From: Candidatus Woesebacteria bacterium
GTDB lineage: Bacteria; Patescibacteriota; Microgenomatia; UBA8517
Direction of reading: 5' to 3'
Assembly: GCA_020061305.1 (NCBI GenBank)
Contig: JAGUYM010000014.1
Span: 117,920-181,919 of the forward strand
Length of the DNA: 64,000 bases
This document shows, piece after piece, positions 1 to 41,970 of the stretch. Below the pieces are notes generated by a model. It worked only from the letters and a program-made list of their open reading frames with translations. It searched no databases and was not told the DNA's origin. The first letter of the stretch is position 1. The number at the start of each line of letters is the position of its first letter. A program made the translations under genes and the position numbers.

Positions 1-158
1 ATAAAATTTGGTCTAAATTTTTGTTGTGGAATTAAATCTTGACCCGTAATTGGTTTTTCTTTGATAAGTATATTTCTTAGGAAAAAACCAGAATAAAATG
101 AGGTTAAAACTACAACTACAACAGATGTAACGATTAGTATATATGTTTTAGTTGACAT
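1..158 (-). CDS. partial ORF (N-terminal ~52 aa, continues past the window start) with a hydrophobic N-terminus; putative membrane protein
   Basis: manual minus-strand translation from ATG at 158-156 gives MSTKTYILIVTSVVVVVLTSFYSGFF...; overlaps the stop of the upstream gene by 11 nt; absent from the ORF track because it is truncated. Confidence 0.25.
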   Translation of the reverse strand, partial: MSTKTYILIVTSVVVVVLTSFYSGFFLRNILIKEKPITGQDLIPQQKFRPNF

Positions 159-28272: not shown

Positions 28273-28300
28273 TTGACAGAGTTTGAAAATTGAATATAAT
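28273..28300 (+). promoter_or_regulatory. sigma70-like promoter for rpoBC (TTGACA-16-TATAAT)
   Basis: hexamers at 28273-28278 and 28295-28300; two hairpins follow in the 5' leader (28308-28326; 28328-28341 + U-tract). Confidence 0.55.
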
Positions 28301-28363
28301 CCAGTTTAGGCCTACGATTGTAGGCTCTCCCGTTTTCGGGACTTTTATTTTATCTAAAAATTA

Positions 28364-31300
28364 ATGAAGTCCAAAAGAAGAAATTTCGGCAAAGAGGAAA
28401 GCAATTTACCAAAACTTGATTTGGTTGCTATTCAAAAAGAATCCTGGATTCAATTTTTGGAAAAAGGTATTAAAGAAGAATTGATTTCAATTTCCCCAAT
28501 TGATGATTTTACAGGTAAAAATTGGCAACTTATATTTGGAGATCATTCACTGGGAAGACCCCAAATTACATCTTCATACGCCAAACTTAAGGGTTTGACC
28601 TACTCAGCTCCATTAAAAATTACAGCAACTCTTATAAACAAAAGAACGGGTAAGGAAGTATCTCAAGAGGTCTTTTTGGGTGATCTTCCTCAAATGACCG
28701 ATAGGGGAACATTTATTATAAACGGTATTGAAAGAACCGTAATTAATCAAATCGTCAGATCTCCCGGCGTTTATTTTTCAGGGGAACTCGATCCATCTTC
28801 AGGAAGGATTTTGTATAAAGGTGAAATTAGACCAATGCACGGCACATGGCTTGAGTTTGAAATAACTAGAGGAGACTTGGTTTATGCAAGAATAGATAGA
28901 AGGAAAAAAGTATTGGCGACAGTTCTTCTTAGGGCTTTTGGGATGGAGGATGAAGGGGCAATTTTAGATTTCTTTAAGGAAATTGATAGAGATAAGGATC
29001 ATAAATATATTACTAAAACTCTTGAAAAAGACAACACCAAATCAAGAGACGAAGCCCTTCTGGAAATTTATAGAAAACTAAGACCAGGCGAACCAGTTTT
29101 AGTTGATAATGCCACAACTCTTTTTGAAGGAATGTTTTTGGATAAAAGAAGATACGATTTGGGGGCTGTTGGAAGATATAAAATGAATAAAAGGTTAAAC
29201 AATCAAAATGTTGAAAAAAATGTTACAGTATTAAGTCTTAAAGACATTGTTTCGACGCTTGCATATTTAATTGGGCTCCAAAATGGTGATGGAAGGGTGG
29301 ATGATATAGATCACCTTTCAAATAGAAGATTAAGAAGGGTTGGTGAGTTGGTAAGTATCAATGCTTTTAGAATTGGACTTCTAAGATTAGAAAGAAGCAT
29401 TAAAGAAAAAATGAGCCTGATTTCTCCTGATGATAAGCCACTTCCATCAAATTTAATAAATGCTAGACCTTTGATCTCGTCCCTTAATGAGTTCTTTAGG
29501 AGTAATCAGCTTTCAACAATTTTAGATAATACAAATCCGCTTTCTGAGATTGATAATCTAAGAAGAGTTTCGGTTTTAGGAAGTGGTGGAATAAATAGAG
29601 AAAGGGCATCGTTCTCAATTCGTGATGTTAACTCGTCCCAATATGGAAGAATTGACCCGGTTAAAAGTCCAGAAGGACCAAACATTGGGCTGGTTACTTA
29701 TTTGACACTTTATACAAGAGTAAATGAATTTGGATTTTTGGAAACCCCCTATAGAAAGGTTGAAAAAATAGACAAAAAAGTAAGAGTAACTGATGAGATA
29801 GTTTATTTAACTGCAGAAGATGAAGAAGACTACAATATTTCCCATTCTGGAATAAACATTGATGAAAAAGGGTACATTTTGGATAAAAGGGTGGCCATTA
29901 GAAATAAAGGGAATTTTACTGAAGGACCAGCAGAAACTTTGGATTTTGTAGATGTTACACCCAGACAAATTGTTAGCGCTTCGACTTCCCTAATTCCATT
30001 TTTGGCTCATGATGAAGGAAATAGAGCCCTAATGGGATCAAATATGCAAGGTCAATCTGTTCCTTTGGTTCTCCCTGAATCTCCGGTTGTTGGAACTGGG
30101 ATGGAGGCTGAAGTTGCAAATGCAATGGGCAAAGTCGTTGTGGCCAGAAATTCAGGAATTGTTGAATATGCAGACAATGAGAAAATTATAGTTAAACTTG
30201 ATTCAAAAATTTCGGTAGACCAGTCAACTGAAGATATTGAGGTTATTGATGGTGGTAAAAAAGAATCCTATTTTTTGATCAAATTTGAGAGGACTGCACA
30301 CTCAACTTGCTATAACCAAAGAGTGTTAGTGGTGCCCGGTCAAAAAGTCAATAAAGGGGATGTTTTGGCAGATGGTCCTGCTTGTGAAAACGGGGAGCTT
30401 GCATTAGGAAGAAATTTAGTTGTTGCATATACAACTTATGGAGGATATGGGTTTGAAGATGCAATTTTAATTTCTGATAGATTGGTAAAAGAGGATCTTT
30501 TAACATCGATTCATATTGAAGAATATGATGCAGAAGTGGTGGATACTAAACTTGGACCCGAAGAAAGAACCAAAGATATTCCAAATGTTTCAGAGGCCGA
30601 ACTCGCAAATTTGGCCGATGATGGAATAGTGGTGGTTGGTGCTGAAGTGGGGCCAAATGATATTTTAGTCGGTAAAATTGCCCCGAAGGGTGAAACAGAA
30701 TTAACTGCTGAAGAAAGACTTCTTCGAGCTATTTTTGGTGAAAAAGCAAGAGAAGTAAGGGATACCTCACTTCGAGTTCCGCATGGAGAAAAAGGAATTG
30801 TTGTTGGAGTAAATATTTTAGACAGAAGCAAGGGCGATGAATTGGGCCCGGGTGTGATTGAAAAAATTACCGTTAAAGTGGCCCAGATTCGAAAAATCAC
30901 AGTGGGGGATAAAATTGCGGGAAGGCATGGCAATAAGGGTGTTATTGCAAAAATCATGGCAACAGAAGATATGCCATATATGCCCGACGGAACGCCTGTT
31001 GATATAATTATTTCACCACTTTCAGTCTTGTCCCGTATGAATTTAGGGCAACTATTGGAGGCTCATTTTGGATTGGCTTTAAAACTAAAAGGAGAAAAAG
31101 GAGCATTTCCAGTTTTTGATCATATTGCTGAAGACGATTTAATAAGGGAATTAAAATTAGCTGGTTTATCTGTAAATGGCAAAACAAGACTTACAGACGG
31201 AAGAACAGGCGAACAATTTAAAGAAGACACGGTTGTCGGAATTGGCTATATCCTCAAACTTAAACATATGGTTGAGGATAAAACTCATGCGAGGTCAACT

Positions 31301-35842: not shown

Positions 35843-36322
35843 ATGGCAAGAAAAGGAAGAGCAGTTAAAAGAAAAATTGAAAAAGACCCAGTTTATGGAA
35901 GCGTTTTGGTGTCAAGGCTTATAAACAGAAGCATGTATGAGGGTAAAAAATCTGTTGCCCAAAAAGAAGTTTATCGGGCCTTTGAAATAATTAAGACAAA
36001 AACTAATGATGAGCCTCTGTCTGTTTTTGAAAAAGCAGTTGAGACAGTGAAGCCTGAAATGGAAGTTAGAAGTAGAAGAGTTGGGGGTGCCGCTTACCAA
36101 GTACCAACCCAAGTTAGAGGAGATAGAAAGATTTCGCTTGCACTAAGATGGTTGATCACTGCAGCAAGGGCAAGGAGTAATTCAGAATTTCATACATATG
36201 GAGAAAAATTAGCCCAAGAAATTTTAGATGTTCTAAAAGGTGAAGGCGGAGCTATCAAGAAAAAACAAGATGTAGAAAAACAGGCAGAAGCAAATAAAGC
36301 ATTCTCTCACTTCAAATGGTAA
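35843..36322 (+). CDS. rpsG: 30S ribosomal protein S7
   Basis: S7 family sequence throughout. Confidence 0.95.
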   Translation: MARKGRAVKRKIEKDPVYGSVLVSRLINRSMYEGKKSVAQKEVYRAFEIIKTKTNDEPLSVFEKAVETVKPEMEVRSRRVGGAAYQVPTQVRGDRKISLALRWLITAARARSNSEFHTYGEKLAQEILDVLKGEGGAIKKKQDVEKQAEANKAFSHFKW

Positions 36323-36429: not shown

Positions 36430-36702
36430 TTATGTGATTGATTTAGCTACATAGTTTTGAAGTAAAATTCCTGACATCAAATATTTATCTGCTAATTCCT
36501 GTTTAATATCTTTAAACTCATTTAATTCAATTAATATGCTTTTTAAATATTGTGGGTAATTATGATCTTTTACTTTTTCAATTGATTTATTTGCTTCATT
36601 TGCGAAAATTAGAGCATTATTAATCGAATTTTTGTGAGTATAATTTGCAATGCGAAACAAATCGTTTGAAATTGCACCTAATAATACTTTAGTATCGCTC
36701 AT
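36430..36702 (-). CDS. hypothetical small helical protein (second gene of an antisense two-gene cassette)
   Basis: 90 aa; 4-nt ATGA overlap with the upstream 113-aa ORF; contains FRIANYTH (an Rx5H pattern); AT-rich relative to flanks. Confidence 0.4.
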   Translation of the reverse strand: MSDTKVLLGAISNDLFRIANYTHKNSINNALIFANEANKSIEKVKDHNYPQYLKSILIELNEFKDIKQELADKYLMSGILLQNYVAKSIT

Positions 36703-37040
36703 GATAAGATTTCTTTAAAAAAATATTCAGTCAATTTTTTATATTTTTCTTTTATTTCTTCACTTTGAATTTCATTTTTAAGATTGTTATCATTTGGGCG
36801 AATATTTATAAAAGAATTAAAATCAATTTCACTAGTTTCTAAATCAATTCCACCGCCCCAAATATTACTTTGTTTTGAACCTTGTTCAAGAAGTATTTTT
36901 TCTCCCTCAAAATGCATGTTCATTCCTGCAATGCAGATTTTATTTTCAATATCTATAACTGTTTTGATATAGACCTTAAACATCTCTTTTAAGCCATCAA
37001 TCTCATTTTTTGTAAACGGCTCAGACTTAGTAATTATCAT
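36699..37040 (-). CDS. hypothetical protein (first gene of the antisense two-gene cassette)
   Basis: 113 aa; TACAAT 6 nt upstream of the ATG suggests a leaderless transcript; QGS-x10-DLE pattern; no recognisable family. Confidence 0.4.
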   Translation of the reverse strand: MIITKSEPFTKNEIDGLKEMFKVYIKTVIDIENKICIAGMNMHFEGEKILLEQGSKQSNIWGGGIDLETSEIDFNSFINIRPNDNNLKNEIQSEEIKEKYKKLTEYFFKEILS

Positions 37041-37271
37041 GGTTAGATTGTAACATAAGTTTCAAGCCTTGAATTCTTCAGAGAAAGAGTAGTATACGAC
37101 TTATTAAGGAACAAGAAAAAGTTTTTGATGAAGACCTTCTTATTGAAAATTACAAAAAATAATCCCATTGAGTCTTGATTAATTTCTTGTTAAAATCATA
37201 TTTACTCCATGTTTTTTGGAGTGTTGTTTTGGACTAGTTCCTAACTCCTAGTTTCTAATTACTATTTTTGT

Positions 37272-39440
37272 ATGGCCGAGGAAAAAGCAAAAAAGTCCAG
37301 TATGGTTATGACGGTTACTAAAGACCGTCAAGTTCCTTTGGATAAAATTAGAAACATCGGGATTATTGCCCACATTGATGCAGGAAAAACTACAACAACA
37401 GAAAGACTTCTTTATGAAACAGGAAGAACTTATAAATTAGGATCAGTCGATGATGGGACAACAGTTACTGACTGGATGGCACAGGAAAGAGAAAGAGGCA
37501 TAACAATAGTTTCAGCCGCAATTACCGCTTTTTGGGAATTAAAGGAAACCAGTTCCGTAGAGAATGGAAAATATAGAATTAATTTAATAGACACTCCTGG
37601 TCATATTGATTTTACTGCAGAAGTTGAAAGATCTCTTAGGGTTCTTGACGGAGCTTTGATGGTTTTTGACGGTAGAACTGGAGTTGAAAGCCAATCTGAA
37701 ACGGTTTGGAGACAGGCTGATAAATATGATGTTCCAAGAATTTGTGTTTTAAATAAACTTAATTTAATTGGGGCTGATTTTGAAGCTTCAATAAAATCAA
37801 TTAGAGAAAGATTGGGTGCAAATGCCTCACCTGTAACTTACCCAATTGGATTGGAACATGCACATCGTGGAGTAGTTGATTTAATATCTATGAAGGCCTT
37901 AACCTATAAAGCAATTGAAGATCATGCATTAACTGAAGAAGAAATCCCTGCAGACCTACTTGAAATTGTTAAAAAATATAGACAAGAACTTATCGAAAAA
38001 GTTTCCGAATTTGATGATAAAGCACTTGAGTATTACATGGAAGGAAAAGAACCAGATGAAATTACTTTAAAAAGAGCAATTAGAAAAGGTGTTATAAGTG
38101 GCAAGTTTTTCCCAGTATTTGGTGGAGATAACAGAACTGCAGAAAGCCAACTTTTATTAGATGGAGTTGTTGAATATTTACCATCTCCTACTGATTTGGT
38201 AGCAGTAACAGGAACAAACCCCAAAACTGGAGAGGTAGTTAAAAGAGAAAGAAAAAATGAGGAAGTTTTTTCAGGTCTTGCCTTTAAAGTCGTGACCGAT
38301 CCACATGTGGGAAGGCTTGTTTATGTCAGGGTTTATTCGGGGACACTAAAAACAGGTCAAACAGTATTAAACACCACAAAACAAATTCAAGAAAGAATTG
38401 GAAAATTGGTTCTTCTTCATGCTGACCAAAGAGAACTTATAGAAGAAGCATTTGCTGGTGAAATCGTTGCAGTAGTCGGGGTTAAAGACACTTCAACGGG
38501 TCACACTATTTGCGATCCATCTCAGCCGATTTATCTCGAGTCGATATCTTTCCCTGAACCAGTTATTTCCCTTGCTATTGAACCTGCAACAAAATCAGAT
38601 CAGGAAAAAATGGGAATTGCATTAAATAAACTTTCTGATGAAGACCCCACATTTAGAATCAAAACAAATCAGGAAACCGGCCAGACAATTATTGCAGGTA
38701 TGGGGGAACTTCAGTTGGAGGTTTTGGTTGATAGAATGAAAAGAGAATTTAATGTGGTCGCGACCACAGGTGCACCTCAAGTTGCCTACAAAGAAACTAT
38801 TAAAAAATATGCAGAGGGTGAGGGTAAATACATTAGGCAAACTGGGGGTAGAGGTCAATATGGGCACTGTTTCATCAAAGTTGAGCCAAAAGGTAGAGGT
38901 GAAGGATTTGAGTTTGTTAATCAAATTAAAGGTGGAGCAATTCCGGCAGAATATATTCCTGCAATTGAAAAAGGTGTTAAGGAAAAACTTGAAAATGGAA
39001 TCATGGCAGGATTTCCACTAGTTGATGTTAAGGTGATCGTTTATGATGGAACCTATCACGATGTAGATTCTTCTGAAATGGCCTTTAAGATTGCGGGATC
39101 GATGGGGGTTGAGGATGCTGTCAGAAAAGCTGACATGGTTCTTCTGGAACCTATTATGAAGGTTGAGGTTTTTACACCTGCAGAATATATGGGTGATGTT
39201 ATGGGAGACCTTTCTAGTAAAAGAGGGCAGATTTCAGGGAGTGAAGAAAAGGCAGGAGAAACAGTTATCTATGGGATGGCACCTTTAGCTGAACTTTCAG
39301 GTTATGCAACTAAATTGAGATCTCTTACACAAGGAAGGGCAAGAGCATTCATAGAACCTTCCCATTATGAAGAGGTTCCAGCTCATATTGCAGCTCAAAT
39401 TGTAGCTAAATCCGGCAAGGTCGAAATGCCTCGTGGCTAA
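37272..39440 (+). CDS. fusA: elongation factor G
   Basis: AHIDAGKTTTTERLL, DTPGHIDF, NKLN G-domain motifs; domains II-V. Confidence 0.95.
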   Translation: MAEEKAKKSSMVMTVTKDRQVPLDKIRNIGIIAHIDAGKTTTTERLLYETGRTYKLGSVDDGTTVTDWMAQERERGITIVSAAITAFWELKETSSVENGKYRINLIDTPGHIDFTAEVERSLRVLDGALMVFDGRTGVESQSETVWRQADKYDVPRICVLNKLNLIGADFEASIKSIRERLGANASPVTYPIGLEHAHRGVVDLISMKALTYKAIEDHALTEEEIPADLLEIVKKYRQELIEKVSEFDDKALEYYMEGKEPDEITLKRAIRKGVISGKFFPVFGGDNRTAESQLLLDGVVEYLPSPTDLVAVTGTNPKTGEVVKRERKNEEVFSGLAFKVVTDPHVGRLVYVRVYSGTLKTGQTVLNTTKQIQERIGKLVLLHADQRELIEEAFAGEIVAVVGVKDTSTGHTICDPSQPIYLESISFPEPVISLAIEPATKSDQEKMGIALNKLSDEDPTFRIKTNQETGQTIIAGMGELQLEVLVDRMKREFNVVATTGAPQVAYKETIKKYAEGEGKYIRQTGGRGQYGHCFIKVEPKGRGEGFEFVNQIKGGAIPAEYIPAIEKGVKEKLENGIMAGFPLVDVKVIVYDGTYHDVDSSEMAFKIAGSMGVEDAVRKADMVLLEPIMKVEVFTPAEYMGDVMGDLSSKRGQISGSEEKAGETVIYGMAPLAELSGYATKLRSLTQGRARAFIEPSHYEEVPAHIAAQIVAKSGKVEMPRG

Positions 39441-39549: not shown

Positions 39550-39579
39550 TTGACACTTTTTGTTGGTGTCATTTATAAT
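39550..39579 (+). promoter_or_regulatory. sigma70-like promoter for tuf (TTGACA-18-TATAAT), followed by a terminator-like hairpin (39590-39618)
   Basis: hexamers at 39550-39555 and 39574-39579; GAGGCA-ATAGAGA-TGCCTC + TTGTTTTTTG. Confidence 0.6.
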
Positions 39580-39646
39580 ACCTTTGCTTGAGGCAATAGA
39601 GATGCCTCTTGTTTTTTGAAAGATTTGAAAATATAATAATAAAACT

Positions 39647-40852
39647 ATGGCACCAGCAGATACAAAACAAAAATTTGATAGGACGAAACCACATGTCAAT
39701 GTTGGTACTATTGGCCATGTAGATCATGGAAAGACAACTTTAACGGCTGCTATTACTACCGTTCTTGCAAAAAATTTTCCGGGTGGAGTAAATAAGGCCT
39801 ATGCATTTGATCAAATTGATGCGGCACCAGAAGAAAAGCAAAGAGGAGTTACAATTAACATTTCCCATGTAGAGTACGAAACCAACAAAAGGCACTATGC
39901 TCATATTGATGCTCCAGGCCACGCAGACTACATCAAAAACATGATTACGGGTGCAGCTCAAATGGACGGTGCCATTTTGGTTGTATCGGCTCCGGATGGA
40001 CCAATGCCTCAAACAAGAGAACATGTTATTCTTGCCCGTCAGGTTAATGTTCCGGCACTTGTAGTTGCGCTTAATAAGTGTGATGCCATGACAGATCCAG
40101 AGCTTTTGGATTTGGTCGAAGCAGACATTCGAGACCTTCTTAAGAAATATCAGTTCCCTGGTGATGAAATCCCAGTTGTAAGGGTTTCCGCACTTAAGGC
40201 AATGGAAGGTGATGCAGAGGCTCAGAATGGAATCTTGGAACTCATGAAAAAAGTAGATGAGTATATTCCTGATCCAGTCAGAGATACTGAAAAGCCATTC
40301 TTGATGCCGGTTGAAGATGTTTTCTCAATCTCGGGTCGTGGAACGGTTGTTACAGGTAGAGTTGAAAGAGGTCAGATTAATGTTAATGAGGAAATTGAGA
40401 TAGTTGGTATTAAAGCGACACAAAAATCTACAGTTACAGGTCTTGAAATGTTTAGAAAGCTTCTTGATTCAGCAGTTGCTGGCGACAATGTTGGAGTACT
40501 TTTAAGAGGTATTGAAAAAGATCAAGTTGAAAGAGGACAAGTGTTGGCAAAGCCCGGATCAGTTACACCACACACAGAGTTTGAAGCTGAGGTTTATATT
40601 CTTTCCAAGGACGAAGGTGGAAGACACACACCGTTCTTTACTGGTTACAAACCACAGTTCTTTATAAGAACCGGGGATATTACAGGTGAAGTAAAACTTC
40701 CTGAAGGTGTTGAAATGGTTATGCCTGGAGACAATGCAAAGATGAGTGTTAAACTTATTGCTCCAGTTGCAATGGAAGAAGGTTTGAGGTTCGCTATAAG
40801 AGAAGGTGGACATACAGTTGGAGCGGGTATTATTACAAAGATAATTGCCTAA
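39647..40852 (+). CDS. tuf: elongation factor Tu
   Basis: [27 protein letters not shown]. Confidence 0.97.
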
Positions 40853-40876: not shown

Positions 40877-41179
40877 ATGCAGAGAATTAGAGTTAAGCTA
40901 AAAGCTTACGACCACAGAGTACTAGACGAAGCGGCTAGTAAAATTATTGATAGCGCATTGGCTTCAGGTGCAAAAGTTTCAGGACCGACCCCACTTCCAA
41001 CAGAACGATCGATAACAGTTATTAAGGAATCTCCATTTACGGATAAAGATGCCCAAGAGCATTATGAAGTGTTAATTCACAAAAGAATGATTGATATTAT
41101 TGATCCCACACCTAGAACAGTGGATTCCTTGGGTAATTTTGACCTCCCTGCTGGCGTCTCCATAGAAATCAAAATATAA
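40877..41179 (+). CDS. rpsJ: 30S ribosomal protein S10
   Basis: MQRIRVKLKAYDHRVLDEAASKIIDSALASGAKVSGPTPLPT. Confidence 0.95.
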   Translation: MQRIRVKLKAYDHRVLDEAASKIIDSALASGAKVSGPTPLPTERSITVIKESPFTDKDAQEHYEVLIHKRMIDIIDPTPRTVDSLGNFDLPAGVSIEIKI

Positions 41180-41199
41180 ATTTTAAATAAATCATTTAC

Positions 41200-41229
41200 T
41201 TGCGTAAACCCAGCTTTGTTTGATATAAT
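41200..41229 (+). promoter_or_regulatory. sigma70-like promoter (TTGCGT-18-TATAAT) inside the rpsJ-rplC intergenic region
   Basis: hexamers at 41200-41205 and 41224-41229. Confidence 0.5.
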
Positions 41230-41300
41230 TCTATTCTATAGAAACATGGAGGTGGTTATACTAGTCTAAACCTTGGAGTTCCTTAGGCTTAAAGGATTAA

Positions 41301-41323
41301 AGACGCCTTCGGCGTTTTTTTTT
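41301..41323 (+). terminator. intrinsic terminator (GC stem with a UUC(G)-type loop + 9 U) ~25 nt upstream of rplC
   Basis: AGACGCC-TTC-GGCGT followed by TTTTTTTTT (41315-41323). Confidence 0.6.
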
Positions 41324-41346
41324 GGCTAGCTAGTCTTACTAAAAAA

Positions 41347-41970
41347 ATGAATAAACTATTTGGTATAAAAGATAGAATGACACAAGTTTTTGTCAATGAT
41401 ATTCGTGTTCCTGTAACTGTGGTCAAAATGGAGCCTTCAGTTGTTGCGCAGATTAAGACTATGAAAAAAGATGGTTATCAGGCAATTCAACTAGCTACCC
41501 ACTTTAATAGAAAACCCAAAAACACTTCTAAACAGCTTCGGGGAAAAATTAAACCACAAAATAATAAATATCCGAGATTTTTAAGAGAAATAAGGGTCGA
41601 TGATGAGTTTCAATATAAAATTGGAGATCTAATTAAAATAGAAGATGTTTTTGCTGTTGGGGATAAAGTAAAAGTAACTAGTGTAACAAAAGGCAAGGGT
41701 TTTGCTGGAGGAATTAGAAGATATGGCTTCCATGGTGGCCCTAAAACACATGGTCAATCGGATCGTCATAGAGCCCCAGGTTCTATTGGTCAAACCACAA
41801 CTCCTGGGAGAGTTTATAAAGGTAAAAGAATGGCAGGAAGAATGGGGTCAGATACGAAAACAGTTAAAAATTTAAAAATACTTTCTATAGATAATGAAAA
41901 AAATACCATTAATTTAAATGGTCCAATACCTGGAGTTCCAGGATCACTGGTTACAATTATTAAATTATGA
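41347..41970 (+). CDS. rplC: 50S ribosomal protein L3
   Basis: L3 family, GKGFAGGIRRYGF motif. Confidence 0.95.
   Translation: MNKLFGIKDRMTQVFVNDIRVPVTVVKMEPSVVAQIKTMKKDGYQAIQLATHFNRKPKNTSKQLRGKIKPQNNKYPRFLREIRVDDEFQYKIGDLIKIEDVFAVGDKVKVTSVTKGKGFAGGIRRYGFHGGPKTHGQSDRHRAPGSIGQTTTPGRVYKGKRMAGRMGSDTKTVKNLKILSIDNEKNTINLNGPIPGVPGSLVTIIKL

Follow-up and report, generated by a model that had tools for sequence, protein, structure and literature searches.

In the 64-kb stretch of DNA analysed here (64,000 nucleotides (nt) of contig JAGUYM010000014.1 from a Candidatus Woesebacteria bacterium, referred to below as the window), the genes of ribosomal proteins S10 (rpsJ) and L3 (rplC) are separated by a spacer of 167 base pairs (bp), with rpsJ ending at 41179 and rplC starting at 41347. 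This spacer, which holds a putative promoter, a short leader with a predicted mini open reading frame (mini-ORF) and a predicted intrinsic terminator in front of rplC, is the subject of the present analysis. From fusA onwards, every gene in the window is carried by the plus strand. The rpsJ gene, separated from tuf by 24 nt, was identified by tblastn comparison with S10 of relatives (49–87% identity) and by a Pfam Ribosomal_S10 match on the identical contig L162. Downstream of the spacer, rplD starts at 41967, overlapping the end of rplC, and the remaining ribosomal-protein array then continues. A search for transfer RNA and transfer-messenger RNA genes in the spacer found none. The coordinates of the features are collected in Table 1.

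Table 1. Genes and predicted elements around the rpsJ–rplC spacer (positions in the window)
Feature	Position	Strand	Description
fusA	37272–39440	+	from the ORF listing
tuf	39647–40852	+	from the ORF listing
rpsJ (S10)	40877–41179	+	ORF of 100 amino acids; closes the upstream tuf–rpsJ unit
Putative sigma-70-type promoter	41200–41229	+	−35 TTGCGT (41200–41205), 18-nt spacer, −10 TATAAT (41224–41229)
Predicted transcription start	41236–41240	+	7–11 nt past the −10 hexamer, from the usual −10-to-start spacing
Predicted near-leaderless mini-ORF	41246–41269	+	ATG GAG GTG GTT ATA CTA GTC TAA; seven codons and stop, MEVVILV*
GGAGGTG	41248–41254	+	complement of the canonical 16S ribosomal RNA (rRNA) 3′ end (anti-Shine–Dalgarno); 5′ arm of hairpin P1; candidate antiterminator strand
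P1 3′ arm ACCTT	41270–41274	+	directly 3′ of the stop codon; pairs GAGGT:ACCTT; formed when the full leader is folded to minimum energy
Variable spacer with CCTTGG/CCTTAGG	41275–41298	+	length and sequence unconserved; without consensus pairs
Predicted intrinsic terminator	41299–41323	+	stem AAAGACGCC / GGCGTTTTT, loop TTC, nine T at 41315–41323
A-rich stretch	41324–41346	+	23 nt from T-run to rplC ATG; without promoter and without Shine–Dalgarno sequence
rplC (L3)	41347–41970	+	ORF of 207 amino acids; Pfam Ribosomal_L3 matches; heads a long ribosomal-protein gene array

An earlier note on this DNA had described the 167-bp spacer, a good promoter of the form TTGCGT-18-TATAAT in it and a Rho-independent terminator with nine T just before the rplC ATG. 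The spacer, the promoter hexamers and the terminator were all found in place, whereas the word "good" suits the promoter in part. Its −10 region is a perfect extended −10 (TG at 41221–41222, positions −15/−14, giving TGaTATAAT at 41221–41229) and is conserved in relatives, but TTGCGT agrees with TTGACA at three of six positions, and the site fell below the threshold of the promoter scan and is not listed there. From the predicted start, the 5′ untranslated stretch ahead of the mini-ORF would be ~6–10 nt long.

The terminator stem comprises nine pairs, four of them G–C, closed by a 3-nt loop, and the nine-T run abuts and overlaps the stem and ends 23 nt before the rplC ATG. The hairpin, the stability of which had been made a check in the earlier note, has an energy of −9.1 kcal/mol and is the sole element of the centroid fold of the leader. 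It is the top terminator-like site within the 16 kb between 36000 and 52000 and one of five strict plus-strand terminators in the whole window. Its stem shows compensatory changes among relatives. The proposed scan for ribosomal-protein leaders, on the other hand, matched no family: Rfam 15 at the gathering threshold gave no match in the window, and at E up to 10 the region 41100–41420 gave chance-level matches only (E of at least 2.7), the top sub-threshold score in the spacer being 17.4 bits against a gathering score of 51.4.

Conservation of the rplC leader in Microgenomates

Relatives of the window's L3 provided the comparison set, namely 160 loci from genomes and metagenomes and three more obtained via a protein database. 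The best genome matches to the window L3 (50–61% identity) belonged to Woesebacteria-like Microgenomates. Among the closest L3 relatives, the L162 contig was identical to the window, the L161 contig (72%) begins inside the leader and holds the terminator only, and L163 stood at 63%; near-identical but distinct leader sequences for fine-scale conservation were not found among the L3 relatives retrieved.

The comparison with spacers of relatives, which the earlier note had proposed, spoke for the element. Of 147 loci, 123 had a strict terminator no further than 260 nt upstream of rplC, where the remainder of these loci would predict 0.069 per 260 nt, and a TTGNNN-16..19-TATAAT-like site occupied the same relative position, upstream of the terminator, in 96 of 148 rplC upstream regions (such counts over loci are inflated by shared ancestry and are not independent). 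The conserved promoter has mostly the form TTGCGT/TTGCAT-17-TGnTATAAT, lies ~90–130 nt from rplC, and is kept even where rpsJ is 0.4–2.7 kb off or missing from the flank, with unrelated genes in between. Terminators of the relatives mostly end 9–60 nt before the rplC ATG, the distance from T-run to ATG ranging across loci from 6 to ~160 nt. Because of the frequencies of both motifs the arrangement goes beyond chance, and judged by them promoter, leader, terminator and rplC follow each other as a conserved unit, which is no peculiarity of the window's genome.

The premise of the earlier note that rpsJ and rplC are normally adjacent fails in this lineage, where the two genes are usually separated by 70 nt to 2.7 kb, or no rpsJ lies within 3 kb. 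In terms of gene order, the classical S10 operon is split in Microgenomates and rpsJ is uncoupled from the rplC operon. Commonly (e.g., L057 1–3000, L012, L028, L056) the gap measures 0.4–2.7 kb and holds unrelated genes on the same strand, among them a deformylase-like ORF in L057, or rpsJ is not met within 3 kb.

The leaders fall into several subfamilies that can barely be aligned to each other. A covariance model trained on the 11 leaders that most resemble the window's (those of the window, L163, L004, L007, L100, L011, L089, L014, L015, L019 and L108, aligned as the window's subfamily) found one copy in the window, at 41230–41322 with 70.5 bits, the next match scoring 16.4 bits. Over ~800 kb of related loci it matched solely directly upstream of rplC, with 49–83 bits in the window's subfamily and 20–36 bits in the others. 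A regulon of several operons sharing the leader motif was considered and is unsupported: ATGGAGGTGGTT occurs as a single copy in the window, and the covariance matches were confined to rplC upstream regions (~860 kb).

Several lineages depart from the window's layout. The L001, L002, L005, L082, L085 and L087 clade has, 33–63 nt before rplC, the promoter TTGATA/TTGCGT-17/18-TGaTATAAT plus 'ttagaatcATGATG' and a short leader in which the 'tagaatcATGATG' start is kept, and some of its members retain a T-run followed by GGC. A second Woesebacteria subfamily (L006, L016, L017, L086, L091–L093, L097–L102, L112) carries a conserved GTTTAATGG after the T-run and then 40–100 nt more, often GC-rich and hairpin-prone, before the rplC ATG. 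L083 and L090 retain the hairpin, and their T-run is replaced by TCAAATTG or TTAAATTG. In a Levybacteria type without a recognisable promoter (L035, L039, L040, L042, L043, L047–L050, L063, L064, L067, L072, L079 and others) the spacers of 116–180 nt begin with a conserved ATGCCCAAA and a mini-ORF MPK..., continue with a hairpin CCACCCCG...GGGGATCAC, the 3′ arm of which is the Shine–Dalgarno-like strand, and end in a terminator GGTAGCC-TAGN-GGCTATC with T-run. Daviesbacteria-type leaders (L045, L051, L061, L062, L074, L137) have a mini-ORF of six codons ending Ser-Gly-stop (MILLSG, MTISSG, MTILSG, MIYLSG), with UCA or AGU as the Ser codon and TAA or TGA as the stop; the enclosing hairpin varies by member (CUGAU...AUCAG versus ACCA...UGGU).

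The mini-ORF and its alternative pairings

The earlier note had seen a Shine–Dalgarno-like GGAGGTG followed by a 7-codon frame, MEVVILV. Both exist, but the heptamer lies inside the mini-ORF and not upstream of it, covering the last base of codon 1 and codons 2–3, at a fixed 12 nt ahead of the stop. Within the window's subfamily, each of the 14 distinct leaders has a mini-ORF of seven codons beginning MEV, codons 4–7 varying freely (MEVVILV, MEVVLAR, MEVVFKI, MEVVLVK, MEVFLIK, MEVYLTR, MEVVRRI, MEVSYIN, MEVSVTT and, with the single GTG start found in L108, VEVVRHT), and the stop, TAA or TAG, stands at the same column in all 14. Alignment columns T18–T24 (TGGAGGT) are invariant and A17 and G25 are kept in 10 of 11 sequences; the remaining conserved columns are TA(A/G) exactly seven codons past the start and the terminator. 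Regulatory codon runs or a defined stalling peptide are not present in these mini-ORFs, in which MEV alone is kept. The CCTTGG/CCTTAGG segment, which had been noted as hairpin-prone, was rejected as a functional core, being unconserved in the 11-sequence alignment and missing from the consensus fold, and represents lineage-specific filler.

Mini-ORFs are not limited to this subfamily. They were found in 75 of 85 distinct promoter-bearing leaders, their lengths clustering at 7 and 11 codons, and in 64 of the 75 the ATG lies 9–16 nt past the −10 hexamer (mode 12), which implies a 5′ untranslated stretch of ~5–10 nt. GGAGG occurs within the mini-ORF in 33 leaders and ends 11–14 nt before the stop in 31 of them, cases that come from three groups: the window's subfamily, the Levybacteria-type subfamily and the L027/L157 pair. 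The extended form of the motif reads GGAGGUGGUU in Woesebacteria and GGAGGUGAU in Levybacteria. Where the start is not ATG it is GTG only (L108, L020, L103); L027 and L157 have TAA versus TGA as the stop at the same position, and the ATG-to-stop distance in the Levybacteria type is 27, 33 or 36 nt, always a multiple of 3.

Such starts are in keeping with the rest of the genome. Shine–Dalgarno matches of at least 4 nt precede 28 of 71 predicted starts in the window, few of them convincing, and tuf, fusA, rpsJ, rplC, rplD and rpoB have A/T-rich upstream sequences without a Shine–Dalgarno sequence. Since starts of this kind are usual here, a mini-ORF lacking a Shine–Dalgarno sequence is normal and a perfect GGAGGUG is unusual.

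In the RNA the heptamer would have more than one partner. Hairpin P1 joins GAGGU with (A/G)CCUC just past the stop in the consensus (GAGGU:ACCUU in the window); RNAalifold kept its inner 3 bp in 9–11 of 11 sequences, with U-A to U-G variation, and P1 as a whole measures 3–5 bp. In the window, GGAGGUG can also pair over 7 bp with CGCCUUC (41304–41310), and this pairing belongs to the minimum-energy fold (−13.8 kcal/mol) of the leader before the terminator 3′ arm is made. The window thereby permits three mutually exclusive pairings: P1, GGAGGUG:CGCCUUC and the terminator.

Pairing of the terminator 5′ arm was assessed by folding each leader to the end of the terminator loop, before the 3′ arm, and comparing the gain from the 5′ arm and loop with the gain after dinucleotide shuffling of the leader portion upstream. 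The 67 distinct leaders gave a mean z of −1.2, with z < −1 in 38 and z < −2 in 16, and because of this mean the leaders tend, by prediction, to hold a strand able to sequester the terminator 5′ arm, i.e., an antiterminator. The distance from stop codon to terminator 5′ arm is 18–37 nt in most leaders. In the Levybacteria type this strand consists of the last codons of the mini-ORF, the stop and the next few nt, and the predicted partner comprises the terminator loop and the first part of the 3′ arm; this helix is paired in 94.6% of cells versus 29–56% with a slid partner, and two sequences in which the stop has changed from UAG to UAA have a compensating U for C in the loop. Around the mini-ORF of the same type lies a hairpin in which C-G replaces U-A in a compensatory manner (6 versus 5 sequences). 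For the second Woesebacteria subfamily, the predicted partner of the 5′ arm is located 8–18 nt past the stop. An antiterminator role was considered for the extended hairpin of that subfamily, but with the U-run still directly following its 3′ strand the hairpin is ambiguous when taken alone. Altogether, antiterminator pairing appears well supported by covariation and folding in the sister subfamilies, and for the window it is possible according to the models.

Candidate signals and rival explanations

These observations make it very probable that the rpsJ–rplC spacer is the 5′ leader and transcription attenuator of the rplC-led ribosomal-protein operon. Transcription would start at the extended −10 promoter and yield a leader of ~85 nt before reaching the strong intrinsic terminator. 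As no promoter follows the terminator, rplC and the following genes would depend on read-through by polymerase, and the attenuator is favoured because rplC requires read-through of an efficient-looking terminator that is kept across most of the sampled lineage. The earlier note had likewise suggested attenuation of the ribosomal-protein genes from rplC on, with a discrete small RNA as the other choice. The conserved, rplC-specific promoter–leader–terminator unit agrees with attenuation, while consensus folding of the 11 leaders of the window's subfamily found no extended covarying domain of the kind expected for an L3 or L4 binding site.

Of the candidate signals read by the attenuator, a ribosome or 30S subunit on the mini-ORF is the likeliest, at about even odds. 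This signal is favoured because the features kept in otherwise unalignable leaders are those that a ribosome reads: a start codon near the 5′ end, the position of the stop, the reading frame, and a sequence complementary to the 16S 3′ end with constant spacing to the stop. It is favoured also because the antiterminator strands lie in or beside the mini-ORF, and because in a genome that seldom uses Shine–Dalgarno sequences the perfect GGAGGUG stands out. According to the proposed mechanism, the heptamer would choose between two partners, ACCUU past the stop (P1) and CGCCUUC, i.e., the end of the terminator 5′ arm with the loop (the antiterminator). In naked RNA the antiterminator could form and polymerase would read through; a 30S subunit or translating ribosome on the mini-ORF would cover the heptamer, the terminator would fold and transcription would stop. 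The outcome would be negative feedback, in which plentiful free ribosomes lead to less ribosomal-protein messenger RNA. The geometry of the best-defined subfamilies suggests this sign, with occupancy blocking the antiterminator and favouring termination.

A number of points weigh against this interpretation. That the promoter is active, where transcription starts and ends, and that the mini-ORF is translated are all inferred from the sequence, and the direction of regulation is the least certain step, since it could be of the opposite sign, as in the Escherichia coli ampC attenuator. Short open frames after any ATG are common in AT-rich sequence. Of the RNAfold check proposed in the earlier note for 41236–41325, the terminator hairpin stood, but the leader as a whole folds no better than shuffles (z −0.37 and −0.47 for 41236–41325 and 41180–41360), and consensus folding of the 11 sequences by RNAalifold retains only the short P1 and the terminator. 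The antiterminator statistics of the window are weak and not significant (z −0.81 in the shuffle test, duplex z −0.78 by RNAduplex), GGAGGUG against a C/U-rich arm and loop is a low-information match, and several other leaders of the window's subfamily have the predicted 5′-arm partner 16–28 nt past the stop, outside the ribosome footprint. By eye, GGAGGUG could pair with the terminator arm over 6–7 positions in 9 of 11 sequences, a count made uninformative by G-U pairs to U-rich loops; the MAFFT alignment does not bring the terminator arms into register. The second Woesebacteria subfamily has an invariant hairpin, GUGGUU...A(A/G)CCAC, with loops of 13 and 10 nt that put some members in a different frame through it, so that by this comparison the RNA, not the peptide, is conserved there. 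The locus counts given above share ancestry. Finally, the clade closest by L3 identity, the one headed by L001, keeps the promoter and has no GC-rich terminator; the element is therefore dispensable in some lineages, and this leader looks like a secondary loss of the attenuator.

The main rival, which we regard as unlikely, is autogenous control. By analogy, excess L4 (as in E. coli), L3, L23 or L2 would bind P1 and free the 5′ arm for termination, the mini-ORF being incidental or auxiliary, which is the anti-antiterminator/antiterminator/terminator logic of the Bacillus subtilis rplJL leader. The element lies in the 5′ leader of a ribosomal-protein operon and ends in a terminator, as the E. 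coli S10 and the B. subtilis infC and rplJL leaders do; this, the three exclusive pairings in the window, the retention of P1 in 9–11 of 11 sequences, the compensated Levybacteria-type hairpin around the mini-ORF and the specificity of the element for the rplC upstream site all fit it. However, consensus folding brought out no long covarying domain that would look like an rRNA site for a protein, and no Rfam ribosomal-protein leader matched. The invariant motif complements the 16S 3′ end and, to our knowledge, a GGAGGUG-type motif is not an L4 or L3 site. Moreover, the leader types diverge widely while the start position, the stop and the GGAGG-to-stop spacing stay, a pattern that binding of a protein does not predict.

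A constitutive element without sensing is improbable. It would be a leaky terminator or insulator that ends the tuf–rpsJ transcript and fixes the ratio of the two units, or a 5′-untranslated-region stabiliser with a U-rich translation enhancer, serving a gene without a Shine–Dalgarno sequence. The order promoter, hairpin with U-run and ATG is also met before rpoB, fusA and tuf, which suggests a general style of 5′ untranslated regions in this genome; genes here mostly lack Shine–Dalgarno sequences, and some relatives manage without the terminator. Yet the promoter stands upstream of the terminator in almost all loci, whereas an insulator should precede the promoter. The T-run follows the stem without a gap, which termination requires, and with 6 to ~160 nt between it and the ATG there is no translation element at a fixed distance. 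Conservation of the mini-ORF and GGAGG and the excess of 5′-arm pairing would be left unexplained.

The upstream regions of the neighbouring units were as follows. The fusA–tuf spacer (39550–39646) has a perfect TTGACA-18-TATAAT at 39550–39579 and, ~10 nt past this promoter and ~30 nt before the tuf ATG, the hairpin GAGGCA-ATAGAGA-TGCCTC with TTGTTTTTT (39590–39617); it shares with rplC the order promoter, terminator-like hairpin and gene, but is without a mini-ORF. Upstream of fusA (37168–37271; ATG at 37272) there is a promoter-like TTGAGT-17-TAAAAT with TG (37168–37196) and the hairpin TACTCCA-TGTTTTT-TGGAGTG with TTGTTTTGG (37203–37232). The region 28274–28363 precedes an ORF of 1110 amino acids (rpoB by size and position; ATG at 28364) and contains a TTGACA-16-TATAAT promoter and the hairpins GGCCTAC-GATT-GTAGGCT and CTCCCG-TTTT-CGGGAC with a T-rich tail. 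With rpoB, fusA, tuf and rplC alike in this respect, four consecutive highly expressed units start with a promoter and then a terminator-like hairpin. Between rpsG (ending at 36322) and fusA, two minus-strand ORFs (90 and 113 amino acids; 36430–37040) break up the usual rpsL-rpsG-fusA-tuf order.

A separate gene for a small RNA of ~85 nt acting in trans (e.g., by offering GGAGGUG to the 30S subunit), with rplC reached by incidental read-through, is very improbable: a discrete promoter and strong terminator, a terminated product predicted in sister subfamilies as a rod with paired ends, and attenuator-derived RNAs reportedly able to act in trans (PMC6614838) speak for it, but the element always has the same orientation immediately upstream of rplC and occurs nowhere else in the ~860 kb searched, no promoter separates the terminator from rplC even in loci with nothing related upstream, and the sequence diverges widely between lineages except for the mini-ORF core and the terminator.

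Coming back to the attenuator read by a ribosome, a bolder form of this proposal can be put forward tentatively. The leader might be a direct sensor of ribosome availability, in which free 30S subunits or ribosomes on the near-leaderless mini-ORF would choose between antiterminator and terminator, and which would be shared, while rapidly diverging, across Microgenomates.

Significance and relation to known systems

The rplC leader is probably an undescribed switch that sets the level of ribosomal-protein messenger RNA. What we rate as new is the combination, in a ribosomal-protein operon, of an apparent attenuator leader and a near-leaderless mini-ORF with an internal complement of the anti-Shine–Dalgarno sequence. 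Bacteria of the candidate phyla radiation have tiny genomes with few recognisable regulators, and the balance of ribosome production is at stake. A conserved cis element is now defined before the largest ribosomal-protein operon, with the start codon, GGAGGUG, the stop codon and the terminator as parts that can be mutated. If the ribosome read-out is true, ribosome availability would feed back on ribosomal-protein transcription without a repressor, unlike in the leaders of model bacteria to which ribosomal proteins bind. Even on a conservative reading, it would be a new family of ribosomal-protein leaders, with rpsJ uncoupled from the rplC operon.

The earlier note had compared the spacer with the E. 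coli S10 leader, the site of L4-mediated, NusA-dependent attenuation, as similar logic at a different position, and the analogy is fair. Both are leaders in the S10/L3/L4 cluster with an intrinsic terminator tens of nt before the first gene, and read-through, which governs a long operon in E. coli, would do so here too. The two differ in place, the E. coli leader standing before rpsJ and the window's between rpsJ and rplC, and the latter has no sequence or structure match to the former in the Rfam scans. The mechanism of the S10 leader is not known to involve a translated mini-ORF or a Shine–Dalgarno-like core.

In B. subtilis, the infC leader (L20) is another ribosomal-protein leader ending in a terminator (PMC1865079). 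The B. subtilis rplJL leader, under L10(L12)4 control, forms an anti-antiterminator, an antiterminator and a terminator and encodes a leader peptide that affects expression, thought to act against Rho-dependent termination and not on the attenuator (PMC4538822). The window leader resembles it in the ribosomal-protein operon, in the intrinsic terminator and, by prediction, in the three competing structures and the short leader peptide. In contrast, the rplJL leader belongs to another operon, shows no homology, is longer and well structured, and has a kink-turn-type protein site.

Eckert and Weinberg (2020) described ribosomal-protein leader candidates, among them an Archaeoglobi L4 leader upstream of rplC-rplD, with no mention of Microgenomates or "candidate phyla" (PMC7247131). 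Like the window leader, these are conserved non-coding elements upstream of ribosomal-protein genes, one of them before rplC/rplD; unlike it, they are defined by covarying structure, which is minimal in the window leader. No ribosomal-protein leader from Patescibacteria or the candidate phyla radiation came up in a literature search.

The closest parallels to the preferred signal are found among ribosome-mediated attenuators. The trp, his and pyrBI leader peptides belong to this class, and for the E. coli ampC attenuator Jaurin et al. in 1981 are said to have found that ribosome binding at a minimal ORF gives growth-rate-dependent read-through. The likeness to trp, his, pyrBI and ampC lies in the short leader ORF, a predicted alternative pairing by or over the ribosome footprint and the intrinsic terminator. 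The window leader differs in that its mini-ORF is without regulatory codon runs and is near-leaderless instead of being led by a Shine–Dalgarno sequence, in that the ORF itself contains the Shine–Dalgarno-like motif, with constant spacing to the stop, and in that ribosomal-protein genes would be controlled. What is sensed in ampC-type logic is the availability of ribosomes and not of a single amino acid, and if the rplC leader is read by ribosomes, it is of this ribosome-availability type and not of the amino-acid-sensing type.

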